NCBI GenBank assembly: GCA_043809245.1
Contig: JAZDDZ010000049.1
Span: forward strand, 13,864 to 77,863
Direction of reading: 5' to 3'
From: Candidatus Iainarchaeum sp.
Lineage (GTDB): Archaea; Iainarchaeota; Iainarchaeia; Iainarchaeales; JAZDDZ01
DNA length: 64,000 nt
The position numbers were made by a program, and so were the translations under genes. Of this stretch, positions 17,028-63,956 are shown piece after piece (position 1 is the stretch's first letter; each line of letters starts with the position of its first letter). Below the pieces are notes generated by a model. It was not told the DNA's origin. It worked only from the letters and a program-made list of their open reading frames with translations, and searched no databases.

Positions 17028-17087
17028 AATAGCAAGTTATTGCTACGAAAATCATATAAATATGTTATGAGCGTGTTATGATAGTAT

Positions 17088-17360: not shown

Positions 17361-17364
17361 TTTG

Positions 17365-19274: not shown

Positions 19275-19504
19275 CCCGCGGCCTCTCCAATCACTGGAAC
19301 CCAGTTAAGGCCTTTAACTGTTTGCAAAAAAGAAGTAGCAGAAGTATACCAATCCGAATGCGATATTGAATAGATTTGCTCATTAGCCTGGTACGCGCTG
19401 TTAATAGTTCCGGAGAGAGGAGTTAGATAAATAAAGAAGGTTAAGAAAATGATTAACATGGCTAAGGAAAAGCCCGCTAAGAACGCCCCACCCACTTTTC
19501 CCAT
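19217..19504 (-). CDS. Small membrane protein
   Basis: Two hydrophobic helices. Weak call; overlaps the previous ORF by about 58 nt. Confidence 0.3.
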   Translation of the reverse strand: MGKVGGAFLAGFSLAMLIIFLTFFIYLTPLSGTINSAYQANEQIYSISHSDWYTSATSFLQTVKGLNWVPVIGEAAGWGGSIGELWPWLKTARLL

Positions 19505-19564
19505 AGTACTATTTTTGGCCTTGAAATGCCTTTAAAATCTATCGTAATGGCAAAATGGCTTTAG

Positions 19565-20843: not shown

Positions 20844-20849
20844 ACTGAT

Positions 20850-22001: not shown

Positions 22002-22864
22002 ATCTTCTCAATCAACTCCTTTGCAATCGATTCATACGATTCTGAGTTGAAGACCTTGTTAACCAACTCGAGCTGCTCTTGGTGTGAGAAGAAAATGTAT
22101 TGGTCAGTTGTGTCTTCTTTTTTGTGCCTGGCCAGAACTTTGACTAATTCTTTTTGCTTGCAGAATTGATATAGCCTTGTCAGATAGGTTCGCCTAAAGG
22201 AGTGAGTTGATAGCTTGAATAGCTTCTTTTTGCATGGGTTTTCGTGGCTTGGAGTGAAAGCCTCTGCGTAAATGTTTGTTAGGCCGGCTTTCTGCCTGCA
22301 TTTGCCGAAAAAGTTTCTCAAGTGGTCGACTGAGATTCTTTCTCTTTTCTGGAATGGATTCAACGAAAAGAAAAGAAAGCCATTGGCCTGCTTTATCTCT
22401 TCTTTATAGCGCTCCGCATACATTTGAATGCACTCTAATGCTATTTGAGGCATTGGTTGGTCGGATGGCAGTTCTGCTTTCTCTGTGAGAAGAGAGATTA
22501 CGCCTCTTTCAAAGTCACAGTCTTGCAGCCTTATTTTCACTACTTCTCCGACTCTGAAGCCGCCTGTGAGCATTAAGAACATTGCAAGGCCTTGCTTTGC
22601 TCTTTTAGCGGGAATCGCTGAAAACAGTTTCATTAAGTCAAGGTCAGAGAATACTCTGTAGACGTTTCTGCTTTTAGGCGAAGAACGCTTTTTAATAGAC
22701 GGAAATTTTTCCTTTAACACTTCGCCAGTTATTTTTCGCAGCATTTTCAAATCAGATGCTGCAAGCTGTGTCAGGAATTCGCTCCATTGTTTTTCGAAGC
22801 CAACAATCGACCTTGGCTTCCTTCTGCTAACCGAAAACCGATTGCCTGCTTCCAGACCCGAAAT
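21998..22864 (-). CDS. Tyrosine recombinase/integrase (XerC/D-phage integrase family)
   Basis: The catalytic-domain motifs are LMLTGGFRVGEV (Arg I), HSFRRTYLTRL (His-x-x-Arg) and LARHKKEDTTDQYI (His/Tyr region). The track ORF runs to 22897 but its first 11 codons overlap the tRNA, so the true start is internal. Confidence 0.8.
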   Translation of the reverse strand: MSGLEAGNRFSVSRRKPRSIVGFEKQWSEFLTQLAASDLKMLRKITGEVLKEKFPSIKKRSSPKSRNVYRVFSDLDLMKLFSAIPAKRAKQGLAMFLMLTGGFRVGEVVKIRLQDCDFERGVISLLTEKAELPSDQPMPQIALECIQMYAERYKEEIKQANGFLFFSLNPFQKRERISVDHLRNFFGKCRQKAGLTNIYAEAFTPSHENPCKKKLFKLSTHSFRRTYLTRLYQFCKQKELVKVLARHKKEDTTDQYIFFSHQEQLELVNKVFNSESYESIAKELIEKM

Positions 22865-22936
22865 TGGACCCAGCGGGAATTGAACCCGCGACCTCATCCT
22901 TGCGAAGGATGCGTCCTACCACTAGACTATGGGCCC
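22865..22936 (-). tRNA. tRNA-Ala: tRNA-Ala(CGC)
   Basis: Manual fold: acceptor GGGCCCA/TGGGTCC with a G3:U70 pair, anticodon loop TTCGCAA, T-loop TTCAATT. 72 nt; no encoded CCA. Confidence 0.85.
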
Positions 22937-23736: not shown

Positions 23737-26700
23737 ATGGCTGAAGAGACCGCGGAAAAAGAGGAAGAGGAAAGGCCTTTCGGGGCAGAGGAACGTGTCA
23801 AGGTTTTGAAGAATTCCTCTGAGAAAGACTTGTTTGAGGAAATGCTCGGCGAAGAAAAAAAAGCAAAGCCAAAAGAGGCAAAAGTAGAAATCACGCAGAA
23901 CAAGGAAGCGGGTTTCATTGCGATAAAAGAGCATAAAAAGCCGCGCAAGAAAAGGGCGGAGAAAAGCGTGTTAAAGGACGCCGAAAAGATTGATGAAAAA
24001 TCTATGGAGGAGGGGGGTCAGGAAGAACCAGTAACTGGGGGGGAAACTAGGTTCCCCCGCGGTTCGGAAGAAGAATCAGGCGGTGATGAATGGGGCGAGC
24101 ACCACGATGCCTTGGCTGAATTGGCTGTTGAGAACGGAACAAGGGAGATTGGCACAAAGGAAAAGGACTGGGATTTATACGAAAAGCCTGAAAGGGAAAA
24201 AATAAGGCAGACTCTGATTGAAAAAGCGAAAAAAGCAGGCGAAGAGGATTCAAGCAGTGGCGGAGGAGCGATTGCATTAAAGTTTTTGGACGATGTGGAA
24301 AAAAACTCAGTTTTCATCGGCAGAAAAAAATCAGTGCACAAAAAATTCGGGTACGAGGGCGCGCTGATGGTTGGCAAGGTCAACGAAGACGATTACAAGG
24401 AATCAAAAGTGCATTTGGATTCACTGAACCCGCACGTGATATTCGTTTGCGGCGCGAGGGGAAGCGGCAAATGCCTTACAGGGGGCACGCTGATAACGCT
24501 TGAATCAGGCGAAGTAATCCCAATAAAAGAACTGGAAGAAAGGAACGAAAAACTGTTTGCATTAAACCATGAACTAAAAATAGGGGCAACTAACAGAACG
24601 GAATTCTTTAAGAGAACCGTTAACCGCACACTTTCTTTAAGATTGAAAAGCGGAAAAGAAATAGAGTTAACGCCCGAACACCCCCTTTTCACAATCAACG
24701 GGTGGCTGCCTGCGGAAGAACTGGGAAAAGGCGACAGGATTGCCACGCCGAGGGTTTTGCCCGCATTCGGAAGCAGGAAAATGAAGGAATGCGACGTAAA
24801 ATTATTGGCTTATCTGTTGGCTGAAGGGCATTTGAGCAACCACTTTGTGCTGTTCAGCAACATGGATGAAAAAATCATCTCCGATTTCATGTTAGGCGTT
24901 AGGGAATTTGATGAGGGATTGAAAATAGAGGGTCACGGAGCGCTAGGCTGTTTTAGGGTTGCACAGAAAAAGAAAAAAGTGGACACAAGCCACATTGTAA
25001 GGAATGAACAAGGGCAGTTCACTGATAAGGGATTCATTGTTGCGCAGAAAAGCTCTTTGATGCAGTGGCTTGAAAGCATAGGAATTTACGGCAAGCTGTC
25101 TGCGGAAAAATTCATCCCAAAAGAAGTAATGGAACTGGAGAAAGCACAGCTGGCTTTGTTCTTGAACAGGCTTTTCAGCTGCGATGGAACAATTCACAGG
25201 GTCAGCAGGACAACTAACTGGAGCATTTCAATCGGGTTCAGTTCCGAGAAAATGACAAGGCAGGTGCAGCATCTGCTGTTAAGGTTTGGGATTCTTTCTA
25301 GGTTCAGGAAAAAACAAAGCAAGTTAAAAGGAAAAATATTCAAAAGCTTTGAAACAGTTTTATACGCTGAAAACGTAATTAAGTACCTTAACGAAATTGG
25401 TTTTTACGGCGAAAAAGAAGAAAGGGCTGCAATTGCCTTGCCTGAAATGAATGCAAAGAAAAGGAACCCGAATTTTGACACGGTTCCAAAAGACGTTTGG
25501 GAAAGGTTTCCGTCAGGCAACTGGAAAACAATCGGGAGAGAGTTAGGCTATGCGCCCCAGTCATTCCACAATACAAAACTTTATGCGCCTTCAAGGGAAA
25601 AATTGCTAAAAATTGCCACAATAGCGCAAAACAAGGGCGCACAAATGCTTGCAGAGGCTGACATTTACTGGGATACAATTGAAGAAATCAAGGAAAACCT
25701 TGAAGAAAAAGAAGTATTCGATATTTCCGTGCCCGAGTTCCATAATTTTGTAGCAAATGATATAATTGTGCACAATTCGTACATCCTTGGAGTGATAGCG
25801 GAGGAAATAGCAAAGCACAATCCGAATATAGGTGCTGTTGTGATTGACCCTGTTGGTGTTTTTTGGAGCATGAAATTTCCGAACAAGGAAGAAAAAGAAC
25901 TCCAGATTTTAAGCGAATGGGGATTGCAGGCAAACGGATTGGATAACTTGAAAGTGTTCATCCCTGAGGGAATGAAAAGCGAAACACCGAAAAACACTTA
26001 TGATGGAACCTTTTCGATTCCGCCTTCCTTGCTGACGCCGGATGACTGGTGCTTAACGTACGGAATTGAAAGGTTTTCGCCGACTGGATTGCTGCTTGAC
26101 AAAGTGATTAAAAAAGTCGGCCACGGGCATAAGACCCTTGACGGAAAATATGTGAAAGGAAAAGACAAGGCATTCGGCTTGAATGACTTGATTAATTGCC
26201 TTGAATTTGACGCGGAACTGAATTCACGCGAGAAAGGATACAAGCAGGACTCAATCCGTGCCTTGACCACGAGGTTTGAGGCAGCAAAGACCTGGGGAAT
26301 TTTTTCTGACAGGGGAACTCCTTTGGCGGAACTTTCAAGGGAAGGGCAGCTGACAGTAATTGACACTAGCTTTTTGGAGGACAATGTGACTGCATTGGTG
26401 ATTGGAATTTTGGCGAGAAGGATTCTTGCTGCGAGAAAAATCACGACAAGAAAGGAAGCCGCAAGCCAGTTTAAGTCAGAGGGGGGCATGAAGGAAATTT
26501 TGGAGTTGGAGATTCCGCCGACATGGCTTTTCATTGACGAAGCCCATACGCTTATGCCGAGCGGGAACCAGAAGACTGCGGCAACCGATTCACTGGTTGA
26601 ATATGTGAAGCAGGGAAGAAGGCCGGGCTGTTCCTTGGTTGCGGCAACACAGCAGCCGAGCGCAATTGACACGAAAGTTTTAAGCCAGCTGGACATTTTG

Positions 26701-27978
26701 ATTGCGCATAAATTGATTTTTGACGACGACATAAAAGCGGTGTTCAAGCGCGCGCCGACAATTGTGCCTTCAAGGTACAAGAAAGGCAATTTCATCAAAA
26801 CGCTTCCGGTTGGAACTGCATTGGTTGCAGACAGGAGTGAGGAAACAAGCCGCGCATTCATTATGAAAATCAGGCCGAGGATGAGCCAGCATGAGGGAAG
26901 GGAAGCCGAGGCAACAGACAGGGACATCACCTTGAAGCCCGAGCAAGTGGAAAAATTCGCTTCCGAGGCGATTCTGAGGCAGCTGGAAAGCGATGGAACA
27001 GTTGAGATAAGGGAAATTGATAGAGTTGTTGCCACAATGAGCGCAAAATACAAGGCAAAGGCGCAGCTGTCAAAGGTATTGGATTTATTGGAGAAGAAAG
27101 GCGCAATAGTGGAGAAAGACATTGTGAGGCTGCCTGGAGTGCAGGCGGAAAAAGAAGAAGAGGAAAAAGAGGAAATGAAAAGGGAAGCCGGGGAAGAGGC
27201 ACCTGCAGAGAAAGAGGCACCGCAGAAAGTCGCTGAAGCCGTTGAGATTCTCGCGTTCCAGAACCGATTGGGGGAGAAAGAGGCAAAGACAGCTGTTGAC
27301 AGGTTCAGGAAAAAGAAGGTTTTGGGATTCCTTGGCTCGGAAGAGGAAGTGAAGGCGTTAAGGCTGAAGCATGCAACTGTTTGGAAGGTTTACTTTGAGG
27401 AATTCGGGCCAAAAAACGAGTTCTACCCAAGGGAGTGCTACATAAATTCTTTGGATGGGGAAATGCTGCACTTTGATGGAAAGAAGTTCGTTGAATCAAA
27501 GGGCTTCAGCTTGTTTTATGATTTGGGCGAAGAGCAGTTAAAGGTTGCAAGGGAGTTAAGGGGCAACGTGAAGTACTCCTTGCCGCAGATTGTGGAGAAA
27601 ACAGGCGTTGAGGAGTCAAAAGTGAAGAGGTCATTGGATAACCTCATTTCATTGAAGCTGGCTGGAACAGGCAAGGACCAGAAATCTGGAAAAAATTATT
27701 ATTTCCTTAAAGCGGAAATGGATTTGCCTCCGCGCTCAGACCATGAAATGGTTTCATCGCCGAAAAAAGTTCCATTGGTGAGAAGCGAGGCGGTTGAAAA
27801 GGAAAGGGAGAATATTTCAAGGGAAAAACTGCCTGAAGTGCTGAGAAGGCTTTGGCCAAATGCGCTTGTGAAAAAGGTTTCCGAGATTCACAGGCCTTTC
27901 TGGGAGGCAACGCTTGCTGAAAAAGGAAAGGAAAGGAAGATATGGGTTGACGCGGTCAGCGGGGAAAGGATAAAGTGA
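23737..27978 (+). CDS. FtsK/HerA-superfamily P-loop ATPase (HerA/VirB4-like) with a K/E-rich N-terminal extension, an intein in the Walker A loop, and C-terminal wHTH-like domains
   Basis: Extein Walker A VIFVCGARGSGK|...|SYILGV. Walker B WLFIDEAHTL. A HerA-type AATQQPSAIDTKVLSQLDILIAHKL motif is present. Confidence 0.75.
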   Translation: MAEETAEKEEEERPFGAEERVKVLKNSSEKDLFEEMLGEEKKAKPKEAKVEITQNKEAGFIAIKEHKKPRKKRAEKSVLKDAEKIDEKSMEEGGQEEPVTGGETRFPRGSEEESGGDEWGEHHDALAELAVENGTREIGTKEKDWDLYEKPEREKIRQTLIEKAKKAGEEDSSSGGGAIALKFLDDVEKNSVFIGRKKSVHKKFGYEGALMVGKVNEDDYKESKVHLDSLNPHVIFVCGARGSGKCLTGGTLITLESGEVIPIKELEERNEKLFALNHELKIGATNRTEFFKRTVNRTLSLRLKSGKEIELTPEHPLFTINGWLPAEELGKGDRIATPRVLPAFGSRKMKECDVKLLAYLLAEGHLSNHFVLFSNMDEKIISDFMLGVREFDEGLKIEGHGALGCFRVAQKKKKVDTSHIVRNEQGQFTDKGFIVAQKSSLMQWLESIGIYGKLSAEKFIPKEVMELEKAQLALFLNRLFSCDGTIHRVSRTTNWSISIGFSSEKMTRQVQHLLLRFGILSRFRKKQSKLKGKIFKSFETVLYAENVIKYLNEIGFYGEKEERAAIALPEMNAKKRNPNFDTVPKDVWERFPSGNWKTIGRELGYAPQSFHNTKLYAPSREKLLKIATIAQNKGAQMLAEADIYWDTIEEIKENLEEKEVFDISVPEFHNFVANDIIVHNSYILGVIAEEIAKHNPNIGAVVIDPVGVFWSMKFPNKEEKELQILSEWGLQANGLDNLKVFIPEGMKSETPKNTYDGTFSIPPSLLTPDDWCLTYGIERFSPTGLLLDKVIKKVGHGHKTLDGKYVKGKDKAFGLNDLINCLEFDAELNSREKGYKQDSIRALTTRFEAAKTWGIFSDRGTPLAELSREGQLTVIDTSFLEDNVTALVIGILARRILAARKITTRKEAASQFKSEGGMKEILELEIPPTWLFIDEAHTLMPSGNQKTAATDSLVEYVKQGRRPGCSLVAATQQPSAIDTKVLSQLDILIAHKLIFDDDIKAVFKRAPTIVPSRYKKGNFIKTLPVGTALVADRSEETSRAFIMKIRPRMSQHEGREAEATDRDITLKPEQVEKFASEAILRQLESDGTVEIREIDRVVATMSAKYKAKAQLSKVLDLLEKKGAIVEKDIVRLPGVQAEKEEEEKEEMKREAGEEAPAEKEAPQKVAEAVEILAFQNRLGEKEAKTAVDRFRKKKVLGFLGSEEEVKALRLKHATVWKVYFEEFGPKNEFYPRECYINSLDGEMLHFDGKKFVESKGFSLFYDLGEEQLKVARELRGNVKYSLPQIVEKTGVEESKVKRSLDNLISLKLAGTGKDQKSGKNYYFLKAEMDLPPRSDHEMVSSPKKVPLVRSEAVEKERENISREKLPEVLRRLWPNALVKKVSEIHRPFWEATLAEKGKERKIWVDAVSGERIK
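24472..25776 (+). other. Intein (435 aa) with a LAGLIDADG homing-endonuclease domain, inserted in the P-loop of the ATPase
   Basis: N-terminal splice junction CLTGGTLITL (Cys1). The two LAGLIDADG motifs are LLAYLLAEGHLS and LALFLNRLFSCDGTI. The C-terminal junction is IIVHN|S (His-Asn then Ser+1). Confidence 0.7.
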
Positions 27979-38488: not shown

Positions 38489-39691
38489 ATGAAGAAAATA
38501 ATTCTGGTTTTGGCTGTACTGGCCTTGTTTGCAGTGCAGGCATGGGCTGTAAGCCTTGACGTCAGCTCAGTCAACTATGATCCTGTGCCAGTGGTGCCGG
38601 GAAAACTATTCAGCGTATGGGTGCAGGTGAAAAACACAAGCAAGGCTGAAGCCGAAAACGTTGTATTCAACCTTGACCTGAAATACCCTTTCAGCGTAAA
38701 GGACGGGGAAGCAAAGAAGTCAATTGGCTCGATTGCCGCGGACCAAACAGCACTGGTAAAATATGATGTGCTAGTCGCTGGAGACGCCCCGGGCGGAAGC
38801 TACGAGGTAAAATTCCAGTTCGGCGACAACAGCGGATTGGACAAGGAAATAAAGTACACCATTGACGTACAGGAAAGGGCACCACAAATAGAGGTTGTAA
38901 ACAGCTCTGTTGAAAGCGCTTCCCCTGGAAAAGACATTGACATTGCGTTAACGCTTGAAAACACAGGAAAAGGAAAAGCGACAGACGTAACCGTAACTAT
39001 TGGAAGCGGAACCCAAGCTGGCGCGGTTGCAGCAGACATACTCCCGCTTGGTTCCCCCACAAGGCATGTTGATGAAATAGAGGCAGGGGAAATGGCATTG
39101 GTTTCATTCAGGCTCAATGTATCGGACAATGCAGACCTTGCAACATACACTGTTCCGGTGAGCATTTCATTCAGCGATTATGCCTCGCAAAACCAGTTCA
39201 CTGCGCAGACATTCATCGGCTTAAAGGTCGCGGATTCGCCTGACCTTGGATTGGTGATAAGCTCTATCTCACCAGCAGCAGCTGCAGGAAAGACTTCAAC
39301 CGTAACCTTTGACATCTACAATACAGGCAACGGCGCCGCAAGATACCTTGTCATAGGCCTGGAAAGCAATAACGCGCAAATAAAGGACAGCGAAGTATTC
39401 ATCGGCACCTTGCAGGCAGACGACTTTGACTCGTTCAAAACCGATTTCACCTTTGACAGGAATTTCTCTGCGGACAACAAAATCACGGTGAAAATGATTT
39501 ACAGGGGCCAGGACAACGAGGTAAAGGAAATAGTGAAGGAACTGCCAGTTGAAGTGCAGAGCCTTTCCTCGGCAACAACAGGCTTTGCCGCTCTTTCAGG
39601 GGTTGCAGTGCCGATTGCAGCAGTAATCATAGTAATAGTGATTGCTGGGTTCTTCCTGTTGCGCGGAAGGAAAAAGAAAAGCCAGGAATGA
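38489..39691 (+). CDS. Secreted beta-rich surface protein with a C-terminal TM anchor (ABC-associated)
   Basis: Signal peptide. Repeated CARDB/DUF11-like beta segments. The C-terminal TM is followed by RGRKKK. Confidence 0.5.
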   Translation: MKKIILVLAVLALFAVQAWAVSLDVSSVNYDPVPVVPGKLFSVWVQVKNTSKAEAENVVFNLDLKYPFSVKDGEAKKSIGSIAADQTALVKYDVLVAGDAPGGSYEVKFQFGDNSGLDKEIKYTIDVQERAPQIEVVNSSVESASPGKDIDIALTLENTGKGKATDVTVTIGSGTQAGAVAADILPLGSPTRHVDEIEAGEMALVSFRLNVSDNADLATYTVPVSISFSDYASQNQFTAQTFIGLKVADSPDLGLVISSISPAAAAGKTSTVTFDIYNTGNGAARYLVIGLESNNAQIKDSEVFIGTLQADDFDSFKTDFTFDRNFSADNKITVKMIYRGQDNEVKEIVKELPVEVQSLSSATTGFAALSGVAVPIAAVIIVIVIAGFFLLRGRKKKSQE

Positions 39692-39695: not shown

Positions 39696-40901
39696 ATGCC
39701 TGACTTTGAAATATTCGCGGTGGCGCTCCGCAACCTGAGATACCAGGGCCTGCGGAGCTACCTTACTCTTCTCGGAGTAATCATCGGAATAGCCGCGATA
39801 GTTGCATTGCTTTCAATCAGCAACGGCTTCACGGCATCAATCTCAAACGAGATTGAATCCCTGGGAAGCAACACGATTTTCCTGATTCCCCTTGCAACGC
39901 AGACAGGGATTAGCTCTGCGGAAAACCTGCAGTTAAGGGACCCTGACCTTAGCAGGATTGAATCATTCACTGGGGTAAGCGCAGTTATCCCGCTTTACAG
40001 CACAAGGATGACCGTGGAACGGGGAACGGAAAAAATTACTGCGACAATTTTGGCAGGAGACCCTGATAAAACTGCGGAACTTTCAGACAGCGGCTACAAT
40101 CAAATTGCTGATGGAAGGGACCTGCAGGAAAGCGATGTTTTTTCCGTTGTAATAGGCTATGACTTTGCAAACAATGCGTTCAGCAGGGCGCTCTCAAACA
40201 AAACCTCTCTTACTATTGATGAAAAAAAATTCAGGGTTGTTGGCATACTGGAAGAAAGTTCGACTTCAATCGGCGGAGGCCCGAACTTCAACAACAGCAT
40301 TGTGATGACTGAAAAGGCATTCAAGCAGATAAGCAGCGTCACTTCACCCGCAATTGTCTTCATTAAAACCTTTTCCCCTGAGGACGTCAATTCGGTTCAG
40401 GAAAGGACGCAAAGATACTTCGACAGGAAATTCGGCGAAGGCAATTTTTTGGTGCAAAGCTCCACGCAAATACTTGAAGCAGTTAACTCTATTCTCGGGC
40501 TTGTATCACTTTTCCTTTTAGGCATTGCCGCAATCTCATTGGTGGTTGGCGGCGTTGGAATAATGAATTCAATGGTCACAGCGGCACTTGAAAGGACAAG
40601 GGAGATAGGCATAATGAAGGCAGTTGGTGCAACGGAAAACACAATAATGGGCTTGTTCCTCATAGAAGCAGGCATGATTGGATTGGTTGGAGGAATAATC
40701 GGCCTGGGCTTGGGTTACTTTGCATCGCTTTTGGTTGCGGCAATAGCGCAGTCCGCAAATTTCAGCCTAACCGCAGACCTGCCCATAGAACTGGCGCTCG
40801 GAGTGCTTGCCTTTGCAATGGTTGTGGGAATGGTTTCAGGCCTCTACCCCGCGAGAAGAGCCGCGAAATTAGACCCGGTTGAAGCGCTGAGATACGAATA
40901 G
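39696..40901 (+). CDS. ABC transporter permease, FtsX/MacB-like
   Basis: N-terminal TM, a large extracytoplasmic domain, and three C-terminal TM helices carrying the FtsX motifs. Confidence 0.8.
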   Translation: MPDFEIFAVALRNLRYQGLRSYLTLLGVIIGIAAIVALLSISNGFTASISNEIESLGSNTIFLIPLATQTGISSAENLQLRDPDLSRIESFTGVSAVIPLYSTRMTVERGTEKITATILAGDPDKTAELSDSGYNQIADGRDLQESDVFSVVIGYDFANNAFSRALSNKTSLTIDEKKFRVVGILEESSTSIGGGPNFNNSIVMTEKAFKQISSVTSPAIVFIKTFSPEDVNSVQERTQRYFDRKFGEGNFLVQSSTQILEAVNSILGLVSLFLLGIAAISLVVGGVGIMNSMVTAALERTREIGIMKAVGATENTIMGLFLIEAGMIGLVGGIIGLGLGYFASLLVAAIAQSANFSLTADLPIELALGVLAFAMVVGMVSGLYPARRAAKLDPVEALRYE

Positions 40902-41221: not shown

Positions 41222-42755
41222 GTAAGTGCTAACCGCTTATGGCTTTTTTGAGGGTTGGGTAGAGGGGTTTGCCTTGTTGTTTCCATGTGGCGAACATGGA
41301 GGCGATTGTTTCGAATGTTCGTGCGCCGGTTTCGCGGCGCAGTCCGCCAATGATTTTTCTGATTACTATAAGTTCGCGTAGTGCTCTTTCTGCAATGTTG
41401 TTTGTTGGTTCTACAAACAAGTGAATGAGGCATGTGAAAAGTGAAGGTATTGCGTTTCGCAGTTTGACTGCGAATGTTCGGTATTCTTTGTGCCCGTCAA
41501 GCGCGTCAGCTATTTGTGTTGTCTTTGTTTCGAGTTCTTGTTTGAGTTGCAGTCTTTTTTGTAGTGGCGGCGGATTTGCGCGTATGCGTTTTATTGTTTT
41601 GAATATGTTGTCGAGGTTGGCGTGGTGGCATTTGTATAGGGTGTAGTTGTCGTTGAGTTCTTTTGATTCTCTGATAATGTGTGCCCAGCAGCGTTGTTGT
41701 CCTGAACCGATTTTTTTGTAGGCTGTGTGCCCGTCACTGCCCATTATTCCTGTGTAATTGTTGCCTAAGATTTCTTTTGGAATAGAATCGTTTCTGTGTT
41801 TGCGAATAACGTAAATGGTTTGTTGTTCGCCTACAAAAGTCCATAGCCAATGGGTTTTGCCGTTGATTTTGATTTCTGTTTCATCTCCGTTTACAACTCT
41901 TGATGCACGTAGTAACAGTATCTGCTTTTGGTATTCTGGTGTGAGGGCGCTTGCTGTTCTTTTGGAAATGTTGTGCACGCAGACATTTGTCAGGTTCAAT
42001 CCCTGGCGTTGCAGTGCAGTCACTGTTTTGCGCAGTGGCAATCTGTCTTCAAATCGAAACAAAACCGTAAGCGTTTCTGCATTGTGTCCAAACATGCCTT
42101 TTGGCAAACCGGTTTTGGCTCTGGCTTTTTTGTGGCAGTGAGGGCACGCGTAATGTGAAATCAAATGTTCAGTGGCTTGTATTGGTTGTGGCTTTGGAAT
42201 CTCCTCAATGATGCGGCGCTCTATTTTGAACGGTTTTTTCAGTTTGTGACTGCAGTGCGGGCAGGCATCGAGTTTGTGCTCAACGGTTTTTGTTGGTTCT
42301 GGTTGTTCACGCGCATACTTTGGATGCCCTTCGGGTGCACCGAGTTTTCCACTTGGTTCTTTTGGCTCGCGCTTTTTTTTGCTCAGGCTGGGGGGCGTGT
42401 GTGCATTCTCGTATGCAAGTAATCTGCGTTCAAGTCCTATTATTTTTTTCTGCATTGCCAAAAGTTGCTTTCTCAGTTCCAAGTTCTCCGCTTCAAGCTG
42501 CTCTATCCTTTTGTAGAGTGCTTCCTCGTTCATTCTATCAACACCGCCCGCACTCTCTTGCCAATCCACTTTTTTGGAACGTAAATCCTGCCGCTGTTGC
42601 CGCTGGACTCGGCAACCTTTTCAAGAACCTCAAAACCCTCCATGCGCAGAGAAATTGTCTTTTTCATGGTAGCTACTTTGTAGCTACAATATGCGTTTAA
42701 ACATATCTATCAGCCAAAACAACCAAAAGGAAGTCAAAAATCGTTAGCAGTTACC
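41222..42755 (-). mobile_element. IS66-family insertion sequence (single-ORF type, 1534 bp) with imperfect terminal inverted repeats and an 8-bp target-site duplication CGCCAACC
   Basis: Left end GTAAGTGCTAAC... Right end ...GTTAGCAGTTAC (11/12 inverted match). Flanks CGCCAACC at 41214..41221 and at 42756..42763. Confidence 0.7.
41229..42569 (-). CDS. IS66-family transposase (TnpC-like DDE)
   Basis: N-terminal leucine zipper. Zn finger CPHC...CPHC. DDE region with VVNGDET, GSDGHTAY and CWAHIIRE. Confidence 0.8.
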   Translation of the reverse strand: MDWQESAGGVDRMNEEALYKRIEQLEAENLELRKQLLAMQKKIIGLERRLLAYENAHTPPSLSKKKREPKEPSGKLGAPEGHPKYAREQPEPTKTVEHKLDACPHCSHKLKKPFKIERRIIEEIPKPQPIQATEHLISHYACPHCHKKARAKTGLPKGMFGHNAETLTVLFRFEDRLPLRKTVTALQRQGLNLTNVCVHNISKRTASALTPEYQKQILLLRASRVVNGDETEIKINGKTHWLWTFVGEQQTIYVIRKHRNDSIPKEILGNNYTGIMGSDGHTAYKKIGSGQQRCWAHIIRESKELNDNYTLYKCHHANLDNIFKTIKRIRANPPPLQKRLQLKQELETKTTQIADALDGHKEYRTFAVKLRNAIPSLFTCLIHLFVEPTNNIAERALRELIVIRKIIGGLRRETGARTFETIASMFATWKQQGKPLYPTLKKAISG

Positions 42756-56233: not shown

Positions 56234-57139
56234 CTAACAGGATACTTCAATGTTAGGGAGGCTGCTTTTCAGCTGTTCACAGGCAGCGCTTGAGGTGTCA
56301 GCGTCAATGCGGTCAAGATTTACTGTCTTTAAATTTTGGAAGTTTTTCAATGGCGAAACATCTGTAATTGGATTTACTGAAAGGCTTAAAGTCTTTAACC
56401 TCTTTAAAGCAGAGAGAGGAGAAACATCCGAGATATCCTGCCCGCCAATATACAATGTCCGTACATTTACAAGGCCGGATAAAGCAGAGGTGTCCTTGAT
56501 TTTTGTCTTGCTGTACAAGTCAAGATTATTCAGGTTAAGTGAAGTCAGGCACGTTAAAGCACTTATGCCGTCCAAGGCTGCATCACCTTGTGCTTTGACT
56601 GCTGCATCCAGTTTTGCCTGGCTTGCATCATCCAATCTAACGCTAGGGCTACTTTTCACGTTCTCGGCAATTGCAGTATACTCTGCGTTAGAACATACAA
56701 CATCCCCGTCTTTGGCCAAATATTCATCAGTGCACCTTTTTTCCTCGTAACCCATCCACCCGCCGTTAACGCAGTACATGTAATCGTTTAATTCATCGCA
56801 ATATGCGTCCCCTGTCCTGCACTTTCCGGAAACATCTCCGCGAATATATATTGCCTTACTGGTTCCTTCAAGGGGAATCAGAAAACCTATATCGGATGAC
56901 CAGTCGGTTGTTGTGCCTATGTGCGCTGTGGGGGCATCCTGTGGCGCTCCGGGCGGCCCGCCGCCTCCTGTTGGAGGAGTAGTTCCACCGCTTGGCGGAG
57001 TTGTTCCCCCTGACGGAGGAGTGCTTCCACCGCTTGGCGGCGTAGTGCCGCCATTACCGCCGTTATCCCCTCCATTAGGGCAACCGCTTAACAAAATCGC
57101 GGCAACCAAAAAAACAAAAAGCAAAACTTTTGCATTCAT
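56234..57139 (-). CDS. Leucine-rich-repeat lipoprotein with a (GGTTPPS)n linker
   Basis: Signal + LLSGCPNGG lipobox. Five GGTTPPS-type repeats. C-terminal 22-aa LRRs (LxxLxxLxLxxNxIxDVSPL). Confidence 0.65.
   Translation of the reverse strand: MNAKVLLFVFLVAAILLSGCPNGGDNGGNGGTTPPSGGSTPPSGGTTPPSGGTTPPTGGGGPPGAPQDAPTAHIGTTTDWSSDIGFLIPLEGTSKAIYIRGDVSGKCRTGDAYCDELNDYMYCVNGGWMGYEEKRCTDEYLAKDGDVVCSNAEYTAIAENVKSSPSVRLDDASQAKLDAAVKAQGDAALDGISALTCLTSLNLNNLDLYSKTKIKDTSALSGLVNVRTLYIGGQDISDVSPLSALKRLKTLSLSVNPITDVSPLKNFQNLKTVNLDRIDADTSSAACEQLKSSLPNIEVSC
56965..57060. repeat. Imperfect about 21-bp tandem repeats encoding the Gly/Thr/Pro linker
   Basis: GGAGGAGTAGTTCCACCGCTTGGC-like units repeated four to five times. 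Confidence 0.6.
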
Positions 57140-57197
57140 TTAAAACAATAAAAAGTAGAACAAAGGGATATAAAAAGGTTTCCCCGCCCAGGGCAAA

Positions 57198-58349
57198 TCA
57201 GGGTATACAGGTTTTGAGATTGGGCAGTTTGGCTTGCAAATCATCGCAAATATCTTGCGAATCATCGCCTATGAACAAATATTCCAGATTACTTAAACTA
57301 TATAGCGGGGAGAAATCCCTGCTTTCCTTGCTGCCTCCGCGAGCGCTCAGGCTCCTTAGCTCAGTAAGGCCTGAGAGCGGGGAGAGGTCTTTTACCTGTG
57401 TTTCAAGTATATCCAAAACCTTCAGGCTTTTCATATTTGAAACTGGCGAAATATCAGAAAAAGGATTTTGCGATAGATCCAAGTATTCCATCTTGGTCAT
57501 GCCTGATAAGGGCAAGATATCTGTGATTTTGTTTTTCTTCAATTCCAGCATCTTCATGTTTGTGTTCTTGGATAGGGGAGAGAGGTCTGCGATGACCGCG
57601 TATTCCGCCTTGAAAGACTCCAATGTTGTTAGGTTTGAAAGCTGGGAAATGGAATAGGTCTGATAGTCAGGATACATGTTTTCCATCTGCAATTCCAAAA
57701 CCCTGAGTTTTGGAAGGTCTGAGAGCGGGGAAAGGTCAAGGCCCGCGGGCTTGCCCAAGAAAACAATTTCAAGATTTTTAAGGCCGGAAATTATTGAGAG
57801 GTCACCAATGCCTTGGTGCAGCATATTTGCCTTGACATCTAGATAGGTTAGGCAGTCTAAGTCATTTATTCCTTCATATGCGCTGTTGGAATTACCCCCC
57901 TCCTTTATGGCCGCAGCGCTCGCAGCATCTAATTTTTTATCGCTGTCTTCATCAAGGGCAACAACAGATATTTTCTTATCCCACTCCGGGATTATTGTTA
58001 CAAAAAACGGGTTGTAAATCTCCGCACTTACTGCATTGTAGTCATCATTTGAGCAAATAACCTCTTCCTCAGGCGGCGTACTATCATCGTTTATACCAAC
58101 GCCGTCATCCGGAACTCCACACTTCCCCGGGACCTTGCCATACACAGTCCAACCCTCTGTTGAGGATTCGCATACTAGATAATTTGTTCCCTCGCACTTG
58201 GTAGTCCCTTTTTCACAAGGGGCTACATTAATTAAGTCCGAGCCCCCTCCATTGCCGCCGTCGCTAGGGCAACCACTCAGAAGAAGGGCTATCACAATAA
58301 AAACAAAGATTAAAACCTGGCACTTCATTTCATTGCACCCTAGTAACAC
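57198..58349 (-). CDS. Leucine-rich-repeat lipoprotein (paralog 2)
   Basis: LLLSGCPSDGGNGGG lipobox. More than 8 LRRs with the DLSPLS consensus. Confidence 0.65.
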   Translation of the reverse strand: MLLGCNEMKCQVLIFVFIVIALLLSGCPSDGGNGGGSDLINVAPCEKGTTKCEGTNYLVCESSTEGWTVYGKVPGKCGVPDDGVGINDDSTPPEEEVICSNDDYNAVSAEIYNPFFVTIIPEWDKKISVVALDEDSDKKLDAASAAAIKEGGNSNSAYEGINDLDCLTYLDVKANMLHQGIGDLSIISGLKNLEIVFLGKPAGLDLSPLSDLPKLRVLELQMENMYPDYQTYSISQLSNLTTLESFKAEYAVIADLSPLSKNTNMKMLELKKNKITDILPLSGMTKMEYLDLSQNPFSDISPVSNMKSLKVLDILETQVKDLSPLSGLTELRSLSARGGSKESRDFSPLYSLSNLEYLFIGDDSQDICDDLQAKLPNLKTCIP

Positions 58350-58385
58350 ATTGTCCTTGCATTGGACTGGTTGCTTTTCAAAAAT

Positions 58386-59048
58386 TCACTGTTGGAGAAC
58401 ACAACTTATCGTTACGTTTGGCAGTTCGCTTTTCAGCTTTTCACAATCTGAATCTAAAATTTTGTTGCCCTGCAAACTCATTTCTGTTAGTTTGCTGTTC
58501 CCTGACAGGGCGGAAAAGGGGCTAATATCAGTAATGCCGCTGTAAGTTATATCAAGCCTTTCAAGGTTTTTTAACTTTGAAAGGAATGCCAAATCAGCAC
58601 TACCAATGCCGTTGTGGGAAGCAAAATATAAGTATTTCAGGTTAGTTAAAGATTCAAGTGGCTGGTAATCCAAATCATATGTCTGGCCAAGCAGCAATCT
58701 AACTTCAAGATAGGTCAGGCAGGTTAAATCAGAGATTCCCTCAAAAGCGGAAGTGTCGCCATTGTTTATCTTATCCAATAATTTTTCCAGGCTCGCATTA
58801 TCCAATACAATTAATTCCTTAGTCCAAATGGTTAAACTCTTAGCAACCCTCGTGGAATATTCTGAGTTATGGCATAACTCCGCAGTGGGCTGTGTTCCAC
58901 CATCAGCAGGCGGCGCAGTGCCCCCATTTGTTGGCGGAGTTGTCCCGCCATTATTCGGAGGCGTTACCTGCGGATTTCCGTCACTCGGGCAGCCGCTTAA
59001 TAAAATCGCCATTGCCAAAAGACAGACAATCAAAATCTTTGCATTCAT
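58386..59048 (-). CDS. Leucine-rich-repeat lipoprotein (paralog 3)
   Basis: LLSGCPSDG lipobox. TPP-rich linker. LRRs. Confidence 0.65.
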   Translation of the reverse strand: MNAKILIVCLLAMAILLSGCPSDGNPQVTPPNNGGTTPPTNGGTAPPADGGTQPTAELCHNSEYSTRVAKSLTIWTKELIVLDNASLEKLLDKINNGDTSAFEGISDLTCLTYLEVRLLLGQTYDLDYQPLESLTNLKYLYFASHNGIGSADLAFLSKLKNLERLDITYSGITDISPFSALSGNSKLTEMSLQGNKILDSDCEKLKSELPNVTISCVLQQ

Positions 59049-59123
59049 TTCGAACAGTAATTAATAGATCAAAGTAATATAAAAAGGTTTTGGATTGCAA
59101 AAATTTGGCGGGTGAACGCGGGT

Positions 59124-59342
59124 TCACATGCGCTGCAAAGCGCAGTTCGCGCAAACGCCTTTCTTTTTTTCAATATCTAACTTTAATTCTGCCTTGCAGT
59201 ACTTGCATTTTTGCGCAATAACCTTGCCGACTTTGTCTGCATTGCGCTTAAGGCTCTCGGCGCTTCCAATCCCGCGGTCAACAACGTTTGCAGAGCGGCT
59301 TGCAGTGTTTGCAATTTTTTCAAAGCTTTCCAATAAACCCAT
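59124..59342 (-). CDS. Small zinc-ribbon protein
   Basis: CKYCKAELKLDIEKKKGVCANC. Confidence 0.35.
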   Translation of the reverse strand: MGLLESFEKIANTASRSANVVDRGIGSAESLKRNADKVGKVIAQKCKYCKAELKLDIEKKKGVCANCALQRM

Positions 59343-59560: not shown

Positions 59561-60205
59561 ATGAGGATTCCGCTGTCCAAGAGGCTTAGGAAGAGGCTTC
59601 ACAGGGAATTGGCCCTATTGCAGGACGAGGTTGCTGACATAGTGTACGGAATCTCGCAGGGCGCGGTTCTGCACGGCGGCACCGCGATTTGGCGGTGCTA
59701 TCAGGGCAACAGGTTTTCCGAGGACCTTGATTTTTGCCTGAAAGCGGGAAAAAATTTCAGGCAGGAATTCAGCAGAAAGGCGGTTTCCTCCGGGCTTGAA
59801 CTGCGGAAATTCAGGCAGACTGCAAACACGATTTTTTCCGCGGTCAGCAATGGCGCTGCCGAGGTCAGGCTTGAAATAGCATTGCGGACAGTAAAAAACC
59901 CTGTTGTGAAGCCGTATGAGAAGGCTGACGGAAGCCATATGGATGTGTTTACCCTTTCCCCTGAATGCCTTTTATTGGAGAAAATAGCCGCATACTGCAA
60001 CAGGAAGCTTGCAAGGGATTTTTACGACATATATTTCCTTAACACAAAGATAACTGAAAGGAATGCGGTGAAAAAGGAAATCAGGGCCTTGCTTGCAAAA
60101 GGAATTAAGCCGGTTGATGAAAAAAATCTCCGCACATTAATTTATTCAGGGGCAATACCTTCCTATGGGCAGATGGTTAATGCACTGCAGGGCGGGGAAT
60201 CATAA
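59561..60205 (+). CDS. AbiEii/AbiGii-family nucleotidyltransferase (type IV TA toxin-like, DUF1814)
   Basis: VLHGGTAIWRCYQGNRFSEDLDF matches the AbiEii NTase core (hGGTAl...R.S.DlDf). Confidence 0.65.
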   Translation: MRIPLSKRLRKRLHRELALLQDEVADIVYGISQGAVLHGGTAIWRCYQGNRFSEDLDFCLKAGKNFRQEFSRKAVSSGLELRKFRQTANTIFSAVSNGAAEVRLEIALRTVKNPVVKPYEKADGSHMDVFTLSPECLLLEKIAAYCNRKLARDFYDIYFLNTKITERNAVKKEIRALLAKGIKPVDEKNLRTLIYSGAIPSYGQMVNALQGGES

Positions 60206-60775
60206 ATGAAATACATGAAATATGTCAGAGAGCATTTCGCAGACAAACCAGCATTCTCAATAAGGGATTTGAGGATATTCCTGGCAAAAAAAGGCATAAG
60301 CAGGGGCTATGCCCAGCTGCTTCTCCACAATCTGGAGAGAAGCGGCGAAGTGCAGAGGATAACACGCGGCTTTTACAGCTTCACTGATGATGCAAGCGTT
60401 TCAGGCTTTGCCTTTTCGCCATTTTATTACGGGCTCCAGGAAGCGCTTTCCCTGCGCAACCTCTGGGAACAGGAGACAAACCCAGTCATAATTACGCCGA
60501 AAAAAGTGCGCACAGGAGTGAGGGAAATTATGGGGGCCAATGCTTTGCTGAGGCACATAAACCGAAAAATGTTTTTTGGCTTTGAACCAGTCAAATACTA
60601 CGATTACTGGCTGCCGGTATCTGACATTGAAAAAACCCTCATAGATTTTGCCTATTTCCGCGAGCCGCTGCCAAAAGAAATTGAAAAAAAGCTGGCCAAA
60701 AAAAGCAACAAAGAGACACTCAAAAAATACCTTAAGAAATGCCCGCAATACGTGAAGGATAAAATTAAGCTGTGA
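60206..60775 (+). CDS. wHTH protein, possible AbiEi-like partner encoded downstream of the NTase
   Basis: FSIRDLRIFLAKKGISRGYAQLLLHNLERSGEVQRITRGFY is wHTH. The stop of the NTase abuts its start (TAAATG). Confidence 0.45.
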   Translation: MKYMKYVREHFADKPAFSIRDLRIFLAKKGISRGYAQLLLHNLERSGEVQRITRGFYSFTDDASVSGFAFSPFYYGLQEALSLRNLWEQETNPVIITPKKVRTGVREIMGANALLRHINRKMFFGFEPVKYYDYWLPVSDIEKTLIDFAYFREPLPKEIEKKLAKKSNKETLKKYLKKCPQYVKDKIKL

Positions 60776-63700
60776 ACTGCAGCACTCCCGCGGAGTTGGT
60801 GCTGGCGATTTTGTTTTGCGTTGTTCCAGTTGTCGTGTTCTCTATTTTGATGTCGTATGCTTTGCTTGCCTGCAGCCCATTGACTGTGTTATTCACTGTT
60901 GTTGTTGCGTTGAATTGGTAGATTAGGTTTTGCTGTGAGCAGGAATTGATGCTTCCCCCTGTAATGGAAATCGTGCACGGCGTCGCTATATTTACTGTGC
61001 ATTGTATTGCGGGTGTGCAGCTTGTTGTTTGCCAGGAGCCGTTACAGCAGTAACCGCTTGTGTAAACATTGCTTGAGTCTGTTGGTGAGGGAGTTCCTCC
61101 GCAATAGCAGGCGCCGACATTCTCTGGAGTGATTTCTGTTCCGTTCGGGCAGGGTTCGGGGCCGATGTAGTTGGTGCTTACTACAAAGTCGTCGGTCCAC
61201 ATTTGTTTTTCTTCGGGTGGAAGCCAGGGCACGCCTGAGCTTCCTGCTGCGTTTGTGTAAATTATATTGTCGGGGAAATTAATGCGGTTTATGTGTACAT
61301 TGCTTGTCCTGAATTCAACTTCCTCGCTGTGAAGCACTTTTTTTCCGTTTATCCAGGAGGTTAGGATTCCATTTGATTGCCCGACTGTGTTGAGTTTAAT
61401 GTAAATCTCTATGGGAATCCATTTTCCTGCCCCGTAATCGTACCAGTAGACTTTTGGGTCTGAAGTAACTATTAGGGGGTGGGTTTCAATCCTGTACTCC
61501 ATCTGGCCCCACTGCCATTTTGGCACAATGTATTCTTGCAGGTCTGGGCAGGATAGCCCTTCAGTGTTCCATCCGATTCTGGCGAGTTTTTGTGTGTTCT
61601 GGTTTGGCCACCAGCTCCATGTTTCATCATATTTCATGTACCATCTGAAGTATAGTTCGTCGTGGCTTTTATCAGGAAGCCAGCCGGTTAAACCAATGTG
61701 TGGCTGCACCCTTGACTCAACATTTCCAACAAAGGCATTGCTGTTCATTCTTCCCCCGCGGTTAACAATTTGCGAGTCCTGCAAGCCATATTCATTGAAA
61801 TTAGTTAAATCGCACCATTCACTCCCAGCGGGTCTGCAATCCGAAATATTGCTGTTTGGGTTGCACAAAACCAGCGGGTCATCAGGAACCTCATCATGCC
61901 ATCCCTCGAAATCATCCTCAAAAATCACGCCTTCTCCAGGAGGAGAGCAGCTCTGTGTTTCCGCGGGCTTGTTAACAGTTGTCCCGCAATCATTCGCATC
62001 TGTGCATGTGCGCGCCTGCTGGTTGTTGGTGCATTCACTCCATGCAGTGCATGACCAGTTTTCAGTGCAGCTTGTGGCTTGCGTTGTTGCGGAAGCAATG
62101 CTGGAGTAAGGGGATAGGTTTCCTGCCGCGTCTGCTGCTCTTATTCTATACCTGTAAGTCGTGCTTGCACTCAAACCAGTATTGTTGTAAGTTGTTCCTG
62201 TTGGTGAAGCGATTTGTGAAAAGTTTGAACAGCTTGCACCTGTGCAGCGCTCCAAGCGATAGCCTGTTACACCAACATTGTCAGTTGAAGCACTCCAAGA
62301 CAAATTAACCTGCGAGGAAGAAATCGCGGTGGCGAAAAGATTTGCAGGGGTTAAAGGAGGCGTTGTATCAGATGCGCCCCCGCATGAATTTGCCTGCCAT
62401 GAACCATTGCAACAATAACCTGAAGTGTAAACATTGCTTGAATCTGTTGGTGAAGGCACGCCGCCGCAATAGCAGGCGCCGACATTTTCAAGGGTTATTT
62501 GAGTTCCGCTCGGGCAGGGTTCGGGGCCAACATAATTGCCCGAAATCACATAATCATCCGCCCAGAAAGACTTTTCCTCAGGTTCAAACCAGGGAACGCC
62601 AGAGCTTCCTGCAGCGTTGGTGTATATTATGTTGTCCATGAGGTCCAGGGCGTTGATTCCACCTGCCGCGGTCCTAAGGATAATATTTTCTTCATTTATT
62701 ACAAGCTCGCCGTCTATCCATACTCTTGCAATGCCGTCGCTGCTGCCAAGAGTATTCAGCTTTATGTAGTCCTCAACCAGTATCCACTTGCCTGCGCCAT
62801 ATCTGTACCAGGTATAATCATTAGTGGCTTCAACAATGGCATCATCCACTGCCCAGCCATAAACCATTCTCCCCCATCTCCAAGCAGGAATTATATATGC
62901 GCGGCCTCCTGTCGGTATGTCCCCGCACGAGCCGCCATCAGGAACATGCCTGTACCTTGCAAGCTTGTGAATGTTTTGGTTCGGCCACCAGCTCCAAGTG
63001 GAATCGTATTTTATGTACCGCCTGATGTATAGTTCATCTTGTTGTTCAGGAAGCCAGTGCTTTATTCCTGATTCCGGCTGGACTCTTGACTCAATGTTTC
63101 CTTTCAAAGAATTGCTTCCCAGCCTTCCCTCTGAAGCCACAACGCCTGTATCCGGTTCCCCGTAATAGTTGTAAAAATTATGGAAACCGCACCATTCTGT
63201 TTTATCCAATGGCCTGCAGTTTGAGAAACTGTCGTCACCATCGCATAAAATCAGCGGGTCCGGGTTTGCATCCCTCCATCCCTCGAAATCATCCTCAAAA
63301 ATAACGCCTTGCCCTGGCGTGGAACAGCTTTGTATTTCGGCGGGCTTGTAAACGGTTGTTCCGCATCCAGCTGAATCAGTGCAGGTTCTTGTCTGCGTTC
63401 CGTTAACGCAGCTGCTCCATGTCGTGCAGTTCCAGTTTTCAATGCAAGTGCTTCCTGTGCTTGTAACCTCCAATCCGTTCAATATCATTCCGCCTCCAGT
63501 TGAACTGTAAATCCTTATCGTTAACTGTCCGTCCGTTACATTTGTTTGGCTTGTTCTTGTTATGTGTGTTGCGCTTGGAACGCTTAAATTGCTTATCGCG
63601 TTTGCCCCTTCAACGTCAACATTTATTCCGTTCTGCCCGAACACAGCGTCATAGAAATGAAAAGTAACATTGTATGTTCCGTTGGGAACATCCACAAAAA

Positions 63701-63956
63701 ACCTTTTTTCGGCATCTATCTGATGCATGTCGATTTCCAATTCATTCCCAGAAGACCTTGTGTCAGCGTACACGCCTGAAGTGTTCTCCCAGCCATAGCC
63801 GGTTGCAGCACTGTAAGCCGTTGCAGTGAAGCGAGTGTAACCAGCCATTACTGGGGAGGATGCCGTGCCAAAATCAAGTTTTAACGGAAGCGGGGCAGCC
63901 GCATAGGTTATTCCGGAAAGGAAGAGCAGTAAAGCCAACAATAATGCTTTTTTCAT
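60765..63956 (-). CDS. Large secreted surface protein with a fibronectin-III domain and an internally duplicated module of about 460 aa
   Basis: Signal peptide. An Fn3 segment with the YRYRIRA motif. Two near-identical modules; for example IIYTNAAGSSGVPW and YCCNGSWQ occur twice. Confidence 0.6.
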   Translation of the reverse strand: MKKALLLALLLFLSGITYAAAPLPLKLDFGTASSPVMAGYTRFTATAYSAATGYGWENTSGVYADTRSSGNELEIDMHQIDAEKRFFVDVPNGTYNVTFHFYDAVFGQNGINVDVEGANAISNLSVPSATHITRTSQTNVTDGQLTIRIYSSTGGGMILNGLEVTSTGSTCIENWNCTTWSSCVNGTQTRTCTDSAGCGTTVYKPAEIQSCSTPGQGVIFEDDFEGWRDANPDPLILCDGDDSFSNCRPLDKTEWCGFHNFYNYYGEPDTGVVASEGRLGSNSLKGNIESRVQPESGIKHWLPEQQDELYIRRYIKYDSTWSWWPNQNIHKLARYRHVPDGGSCGDIPTGGRAYIIPAWRWGRMVYGWAVDDAIVEATNDYTWYRYGAGKWILVEDYIKLNTLGSSDGIARVWIDGELVINEENIILRTAAGGINALDLMDNIIYTNAAGSSGVPWFEPEEKSFWADDYVISGNYVGPEPCPSGTQITLENVGACYCGGVPSPTDSSNVYTSGYCCNGSWQANSCGGASDTTPPLTPANLFATAISSSQVNLSWSASTDNVGVTGYRLERCTGASCSNFSQIASPTGTTYNNTGLSASTTYRYRIRAADAAGNLSPYSSIASATTQATSCTENWSCTAWSECTNNQQARTCTDANDCGTTVNKPAETQSCSPPGEGVIFEDDFEGWHDEVPDDPLVLCNPNSNISDCRPAGSEWCDLTNFNEYGLQDSQIVNRGGRMNSNAFVGNVESRVQPHIGLTGWLPDKSHDELYFRWYMKYDETWSWWPNQNTQKLARIGWNTEGLSCPDLQEYIVPKWQWGQMEYRIETHPLIVTSDPKVYWYDYGAGKWIPIEIYIKLNTVGQSNGILTSWINGKKVLHSEEVEFRTSNVHINRINFPDNIIYTNAAGSSGVPWLPPEEKQMWTDDFVVSTNYIGPEPCPNGTEITPENVGACYCGGTPSPTDSSNVYTSGYCCNGSWQTTSCTPAIQCTVNIATPCTISITGGSINSCSQQNLIYQFNATTTVNNTVNGLQASKAYDIKIENTTTGTTQNKIASTNSAGVLQFTA

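Follow-up and report, generated by a model that had tools for sequence, protein, structure and literature searches.

A tandem trio of predicted leucine-rich repeat lipoproteins in a Diapherotrites archaeon

Slr of Streptococcus pyogenes is a leucine-rich repeat (LRR) lipoprotein of the membrane which has been shown experimentally to be globomycin-sensitive and which binds collagen I (PMC3105044). It is the closest experimentally studied analogue of three proteins that we describe here from Candidatus Iainarchaeum sp. These are encoded by three consecutive genes, named A, B and C in this study, at positions 56234–59048 of a 64,000-nucleotide stretch (the window; contig JAZDDZ010000049.1 of assembly GCA_043809245.1, positions 13,864 to 77,863 of the forward strand). 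Slr shares with the trio a lipobox anchor and C-terminal InlA-like LRRs of 22 residues. In contrast to the trio, it is a protein of ~85 kDa with 10–11 LRRs and N-terminal histidine-triad motifs which is processed by bacterial Lgt/Lsp, and it has neither a stalk rich in Gly, Thr and Pro (G/T/P) nor the module of four cysteines (4-Cys module) present in two of the archaeal proteins. Our analysis suggests that the trio probably comprises paralogous LRR lipoproteins of bacterial type which have diverged from one another and which are anchored through an N-terminal lipid, lie on the cell surface and bind a ligand.

The LRR domain of the trio finds its best matches in both sequence and fold among the Listeria internalins (InlA, InlB, InlH, InlF and InlC2), with which it shares a 22-residue repeat containing the pattern ...N.I.DI.PL.... 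Internalin genes, too, form tandem multigene clusters with differing repeat numbers. Unlike the internalins, the trio lacks the Ig-like inter-repeat domain, the LPXTG motif and the GW anchor, and has instead a short Cys-containing C-terminal cap and a predicted N-terminal lipid anchor. The NCBIfam internalin models (InlA, InlH and InlK) score A, B and C at 13–86 bits against cut-offs of 1050–1600, and the LRR_adjacent model gave no match; judged by sequence, the three proteins fall outside the Listeria class 1 internalins.

A scan with the signal-peptide pattern of the three-paralogue alignment located at least three Clostridia loci (L001–L003) in metagenome-assembled genomes (MAGs) from rabbit gut. 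Their proteins carry an ...ALLLSGC lipobox ahead of a long repetitive linker and internalin-type LRRs, and close with a C-terminal L..QLPNC cap. They differ from the trio in their Ser-rich (SSSKPA)n linker, in having 12–14 LRRs, in the absence of the 4-Cys module and in an identity of 35–47% which is confined to the LRR part. Since these Clostridia proteins share the general plan, the architecture is a common bacterial one. On the archaeal side, the lipobox proteins of the AliA/AliB pathway of Haloferax volcanii have the same lipobox motif at the same position as the trio; this haloarchaeon is the source of the characterised lipoproteins of PMC12462473, where predicted lipoproteins are described as prevalent in DPANN archaea as well as in Euryarchaeota. 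The trio is an archaeal addition to the known bacterial-type LRR lipoproteins. No paper in the literature collection searched ties LRR proteins to DPANN, and to our knowledge no Diapherotrites LRR lipoprotein has been characterised before.

Gene organization and lipobox signal peptides

The initial annotation had placed three tandem genes in this region, and its coordinates are exact: the open reading frames (ORFs) are consecutive and all of their features described below lie on the minus strand. Gene A (56234–57139) encodes 301 amino acids (NCBI MFH1257034.1) arranged as a lipobox signal peptide, a G/T/P heptad linker, a conserved beta module, a 4-Cys module, an N-cap, four LRRs and a disulfide C-cap. 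Gene B (57198–58328) encodes 376 amino acids (MFH1257035.1), in which the lipobox signal peptide is followed by a short G-rich segment, a 4-Cys module, an acidic, Pro-containing spacer, an N-cap, nine LRRs and a C-cap. Its ORF in a mechanically derived list runs to a GTG at 58349; the ATG at 58328 is used here, as in the NCBI protein. Gene C (58386–59048) encodes 220 amino acids (MFH1257036.1) consisting of a lipobox signal peptide, a G/T/P octad linker, an N-cap, four LRRs and a C-cap. All three entries bear the same NCBI title, 'leucine-rich repeat domain-containing protein [Candidatus Diapherotrites archaeon]', and belong to one contig of 78,495 bp. The plus-strand ORFs overlapping A, B and C have no family matches and were read as shadow ORFs.

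The three genes are paralogous, as had been proposed, with a mutual identity of 35–40% and invariant cysteines in the N- and C-caps. No further paralogue was found in the window with a hidden Markov model of the family. The host is an archaeon, as the initial annotation had supposed: the contig carries the NCBI label Candidatus Diapherotrites (a MAG), and the ribosomal protein L44e, which is restricted to archaea and eukaryotes, is encoded 1.2 kb away from gene A. The archaeal origin is also backed by a TrmB regulator, the homocysteine-synthesis enzyme HcyBio and a ferredoxin-thioredoxin-reductase-like gene in the window, and a tRNA-Ala of the window which does not encode its CCA end was counted toward it.

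Signal peptides with a lipobox cysteine, claimed earlier for each protein, are present in all three, namely MNAKVLLFVFLVAAILLSGC in A (57080–57139), MKCQVLIFVFIVIALLLSGC in B (58269–58328) and MNAKILIVCLLAMAILLSGC in C (58989–59048), each ending in Cys20. The N-termini read M-(N/K)-x-(K/Q), followed by an uncharged hydrophobic stretch and L-L-S-G-C-P. We defined a lipobox signal peptide by a positively charged n-region, an h-region free of charges and the motif [LVI][ASTVI][GAS]C, as given in PMC12462473, with the cysteine at residues 15–35. A, B and C each have a Lys within the first four residues, an uncharged 10–15 segment and L-S-G-C20. With this heuristic applied to all ORFs of the window and to each of their possible starts, A, B and C were the only matches. 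None of the three signal peptides contains a twin-arginine motif and export would therefore go by Sec.

A 14-nt motif, AAACCTTTTTATAT, precedes the ATG of A (57168–57181) and, in identical form, that of C (59077–59090), in each case by ~30 nt. No further exact copy occurs in the window, and the motif resembles an archaeal B recognition element (BRE)/TATA element. Gene B is without the motif and starts 37 nt past the stop of C, so C and B are probably carried on one transcript and A would be transcribed by itself. Between A and C, DNA conservation is highest in the segment comprising this putative promoter and the signal peptide (76% over 109 nt). As the best DNA tract reaches no more than this level, recent gene conversion among the paralogues was rejected.

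Repeat domains, cysteine modules and linkers

The LRR_4 family of Pfam (cut-off 27 bits) matches A with 51.2, B with 68.0 and C with 40.5 bits (E-values 1e-13, 6e-19 and 3e-10). Five to ten LRRs per protein had been expected; repeats are indeed present in all three, and their number is four in A, nine in B and four in C, as counted by manual segmentation of the three sequences and in the AlphaFold2 (AF2) models of A and B. Segmentation gives a period of mostly 22 residues throughout. The capped LRR domain of A (residues 149–301; 56237–56695) begins with an N-cap that has a long helix and C149/C197, continues with four LRR strands and closes with a C-cap (C287/C301). The corresponding domains span residues 92–376 in B (57201–58055; nine LRR strands) and residues 59–220 in C (58389–58874; four LRRs). 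The paralogues share the N-cap pattern C-x-N-x-x-Y ... LD..S..KL ... A.(D/E)GI..L.CLT.L and the C-cap pattern C..L...LPN...C.

The model of B, generated from a 48-sequence alignment, has a mean predicted local distance difference test (pLDDT) score of 81.9, with values mostly >90 in the capped LRR domain. It shows a long N-cap helix (residues 127–142), nine strands within residues 162–352 and a C-terminal helix and strand. For A, for which the alignment held five sequences, the mean pLDDT is 62.5, with values of 72–89 over most of the LRR part; the N-cap helix is seen at residues 171–191 and the strands at residues 200–203, 228–232, 250–254 and 272–275. Foldseek comparison of both models with the PDB returned InlA, InlB, InlF, InlH and InlC2 as the best matches, with 26–37% identity and good superposition, and a phmmer search of B against PDB sequences placed Listeria InlA first (E-value 4e-59). 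Sequence and models together place A, B and C in the internalin-type class of 22-residue LRRs, with a curved solenoid contributing one strand per repeat in the models of A and B.

The 4-Cys module, common to A and B, is located in A at 56732–56821 (C107, C114, C123 and C136; C-x6-C-x8-C-x12-C) and in B at 58119–58217 (C38, C45, C53 and C70; C-x6-C-x7-C-x16-C), and contains a GW motif in both. In the model of B it is predicted with moderate confidence to form two beta hairpins. The beta module occurs in A alone of the three. A Pfam search at E-values up to 10 returned only noise for the 4-Cys and beta modules (VWA_N2 0.089, ShK 0.12). After Cys20 there are eight cysteines in A, eight in B and four in C, all at aligned, conserved positions. 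Such even and conserved numbers are expected of extracytoplasmic, disulfide-bonded proteins. The mature proteins are acidic (isoelectric points 4.3–4.6) and contain few N-glycosylation sequons (0, 1 and 2 in A, B and C, respectively).

A (GGTTPPS)n linker had been attributed to each protein. Such a linker is found as heptads in A and as imperfect octads in C, and is absent from B, where the lipobox is followed by just PSDGGNGGGSDLINVA and then by the 4-Cys module. The linker of A (residues 21–66; 56942–57079) has 46 residues, including 17 Gly, 12 Pro and 8 Thr, and can be divided into four to five heptads (TPPSGGS, TPPSGGT, TPPSGGT and TPPTGGG, then a degenerate GPPGAPQ). The linker of C (residues 21–57; 58878–58988) consists of three imperfect GGTxPPxN octads, GGTTPPTN, GGTAPPAD and GGTQPTAE, each encoded by 24 bp. 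The linker of A is disordered in the model of this protein, and linker pLDDT stays below 50 in the models of A and B, suggesting that the linkers serve as disordered tethers, as expected.

Homologues, proposed function and alternatives

A search with A returned two full-length homologues. The first, P0122 (MBU1164484.1, 308 aa), is 50% identical to A by BLASTP and labelled 'Patescibacteria group bacterium'; the second, P0123 (286 aa), comes from JGI metagenome 3300033153 and is 44% identical to A. The alignment of A with P0122 covers 283 columns at 52% identity and is colinear, including the non-LRR N-terminal modules. Both homologues have the domain order of A, with a lipobox signal peptide (LIGGC and LITSC), a T/P-rich linker, the beta module ('APQDAP..H.G.T.W.S..GFL'), the 4-Cys module, an N-cap, four LRRs and a disulfide C-cap which, as in A, ends in ...LP(N/E)..V.C. 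They differ from A in that their linkers, though rich in T and P, are non-repetitive and in that an additional Cys hairpin is inserted; unlike the trio, they are single-copy genes placed directly downstream of an IMPDH-like gene. Gene A is the only member of the trio that belongs to this family; B has in common with it the capped LRR domain plus the 4-Cys module, and C the capped LRR domain alone.

Both homologue contigs encode a tRNA-Gly(GCC) with a U73 discriminator and an encoded CCA. U73 is the bacterial identity element of tRNA-Gly, and A73 the archaeal and eukaryotic one. A perfect TTGACA-17-TATAAT precedes a tRNA-Leu on a homologue contig, and NCBIfam gave no marker deciding between bacterial and archaeal origin among ten neighbours of P0122. 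Based on U73 with the encoded CCA, the sigma-70 consensus and the NCBI label, we regard these contigs as probably bacterial. Third-codon identity between A and the homologues is 0.34, and GC at third codon positions (GC3) is 0.18–0.22 in the homologues, whose overall GC is 32–34%, compared to 0.44 in A. The split between A and its homologues is therefore old. A recent horizontal transfer from the candidate phyla radiation (CPR) was rejected, as third-codon identity is low and GC3 is adapted to each genome.

The family appears to be small. In a profile search of 1.84 billion representatives with a five-sequence alignment, A itself (P0121) and P0123 were the only single-stretch matches to the whole profile among the best 150, a list dominated by giant multi-LRR proteins in which relatives below ~316 bits would be hidden. 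A metagenome scan with the alignment of the non-LRR N-terminal part had the P0122 contig as its sole hit among the matches listed. The search with B returned 887 matches which, beyond B itself, covered the LRR part only (27–45% identity) and were bacterial where named. The family probably reached the archaeon from bacteria, and the relation of A to P0122 and P0123 is likely an inter-domain link between Diapherotrites and Patescibacteria genes. Gene A and its counterparts on bacterial-looking contigs would offer a tidy example of a surface module common to two domains. Apart from this relation the locus is an ordinary LRR-lipoprotein cluster, already annotated generically as LRR-domain proteins; its remaining interest lies in the likely link with Patescibacteria and in a conserved lipobox in a DPANN archaeon.

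We propose that the precursors of A, B and C are exported via Sec, after which Cys20 would be lipidated and the signal peptide cut off, a process that depends on AliA/AliB in archaea. The mature protein would then sit outside the cytoplasmic membrane, held to its outer face by the N-terminus. A flexible and probably extended G/T/P stalk could lift the disulfide-capped, internalin-like solenoid off the membrane in A and C; in B, the short Gly-rich piece, the 4-Cys module and the acidic, Pro-containing spacer would take the place of the stalk. An extended polypeptide chain measures ~3 Å per residue. Fully extended, the stalks would reach roughly 13 nm in A (46 residues) and 11 nm in C (37 residues), and they may carry O-glycans, by analogy with the Thr-rich stretches of archaeal S-layer glycoproteins. 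The solenoid would bind a macromolecular ligand with its concave beta-sheet, and this ligand may belong to another cell, to the envelope of the organism itself or to a polymer. The paralogues probably recognise different ligands since their LRR numbers and concave-face residues differ.

The surface-exposed, tethered LRR binding protein suggested by the initial annotation thus gains support from the lipobox, the disordered linkers, the even and conserved cysteines and the internalin-like folds, as far as sequence and models can indicate. Several observations weigh against it. The lipidation factor AliA (arCOG02177) is found in DPANN with some gaps (PMC12462473), and lipidation in this genome is a prediction; the disulfide pairing is likewise predicted, from cysteine conservation; beyond the LRR domain, the AF2 prediction for A is weak, in line with its mean pLDDT; and the genes flanking the trio, for an AbiE toxin-antitoxin pair at one end and for ferredoxin-thioredoxin-reductase-like and rubrerythrin proteins at the other, give no hint of the ligand. 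If the proteins are indeed lipidated and surface-exposed, they would be small, easily expressed candidates for studying archaeal lipoprotein processing beyond haloarchaea, and also for finding the surface ligands of a DPANN archaeon.

The gaps in the occurrence of AliA could also mean that the lipobox is not used, with signal peptidase I releasing the protein or the hydrophobic segment staying as an uncleaved anchor, and in a family of probably bacterial origin the motif might be a relic. We consider this unlikely, because L-S-G-C-P is strictly kept in three paralogues that are otherwise so diverged, and because the conservation of the A and C DNA over the signal peptide and promoter argues for selection. 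It is possible, although doubtful, that the ligand-binding lipoproteins proposed here are more specifically dedicated attachment factors for a host or partner cell, as the initial annotation had suggested. Episymbionts are numerous among the DPANN archaea, bacterial LRR surface proteins such as the internalins and Slr are classic adhesins, a small multigene family with differing LRR numbers would fit several targets, and the nearest homologues reside on contigs resembling Patescibacteria, another ultra-small episymbiotic group. However, the window holds no evidence of lifestyle, it contains genes for biosynthesis (HcyBio, an aminotransferase and a 2-hydroxyacid dehydrogenase), the literature searched offered no link between LRR proteins and DPANN, and a family for which billions of proteins yielded two homologues does not amount to an attachment system used across DPANN. 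Moreover, Diapherotrites have been suggested to be among the DPANN lineages able to live independently (PMC6349945). It is more speculative still, and in our view improbable, that the trio is part of a small cross-domain adhesin family of ultra-small groundwater symbionts (CPR/Patescibacteria and DPANN), in which inter-domain transfer, a lipobox read by both lipidation machineries and expansion into three partner-attachment specificities would have been combined. That the trio is bacterial DNA which an assembly or binning error joined to an archaeal contig might be suspected from its bacterial closest relatives and from LRR lipoproteins being typical of bacteria. We find this barely conceivable, given that the genes lie inside the contig and close to the L44e gene, that their GC (43–48%) is similar to that of the flanks and unlike that of the homologues, and that the TATA-like motif of A and C shows the spacing expected of an archaeal promoter.

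A different role for the linkers had been put forward in the initial annotation, where DNA tandem repeats of roughly 21 bp in each gene were taken to indicate phase or size variation. Such repeats exist in A, where they are degenerate: TRF found an array in A alone (56971–57046, period 21, 3.6 copies, 65% matches). The linker of C is built of 24-bp units, that of B has no repeats, and exact repeats of at least 8 bp are absent from the linker region of both. Within the array of A, neighbouring 21-bp units are 57–67% identical and differ in their synonymous codons, whereas copies 42 bp apart are 81–86% identical. The array also has its longest exact repeat, 16 bp in length, at this 42-bp spacing and therefore grew at least once by a 42-bp duplication. 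This past event, the very presence of the array and, by analogy, the (SSSKPA) copy number which varies among the three Clostridia relatives could be taken as signs of a contingency locus in which slipped-strand mispairing generates the variation. Against this, the units of 21 and 24 bp are multiples of 3 bp, so that slippage would only alter the length of the stalk and never the reading frame or the on/off state; the units are scrambled at synonymous sites, and one paralogue is free of repeats. Near-perfect repeats which alter the frame or the promoter spacing, the mark of a phase-variable locus, are found in none of A, B and C. The linkers of P0122 and P0123 are non-repetitive and P0122 is identical across five assemblies; no strain variants of A, B and C are present in the public protein collection, where all three are singleton 90% clusters from one contig. 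Phase variation is thus unsupported, the wider idea of phase or size variation is likewise unsupported and partly contradicted, and we hold a contingency locus to be very unlikely.

Surroundings of the locus and of its homologue

Directly upstream of the promoter of C, on the same strand, a 72-aa ORF (59124–59342) with two CxxC pairs, reminiscent of a zinc ribbon, has no Pfam match. It is followed at 59561–60775 by the AbiEii nucleotidyltransferase toxin and AbiEi antitoxin genes upstream of C, with the toxin gene first. The next gene (60765–63956) encodes a secreted protein of 1063 aa with an ordinary, non-lipobox signal peptide and an internally duplicated architecture, comprising two PL14-like polysaccharide-lyase modules, fn3 and galactose-binding-like modules and repeated Cys-rich spacers.

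Farther away, the region 6000–22936 forms a low-GC block (31–37% compared to 43–47% elsewhere) in which many ORFs have no Pfam match. It contains a terminase-large-subunit-like ORF (10398–11948) and an Mrr/ResIII helicase-nuclease (12393–14993), and ends in a tyrosine integrase (21998–22897) overlapping the 3' part of tRNA-Ala(CGC) (22865–22936). The block looks like a provirus or mobile element integrated at a tRNA gene. At 23737–27978, the gene for a HerA/DUF87-type ATPase of 1413 aa contains an intein, which carries a LAGLIDADG homing endonuclease and interrupts the ATPase. An IS66-family transposase (41229–42569) is located beside the genes for a CARDB/NEW3 surface protein (38489–39691) and a MacB/FtsX permease (39696–40901).

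On the contig of P0122 (L004), which bears the Patescibacteria label, a LOOT RNA (Rfam RF03000) is present at 820–943 (72 bits; gathering score 46). Genes for a serine recombinase and a Fic protein (13466–14194) lie a short way downstream of the P0122 locus, beside a tRNA-Gly (12979–13054), and this region is possibly another integrated element.

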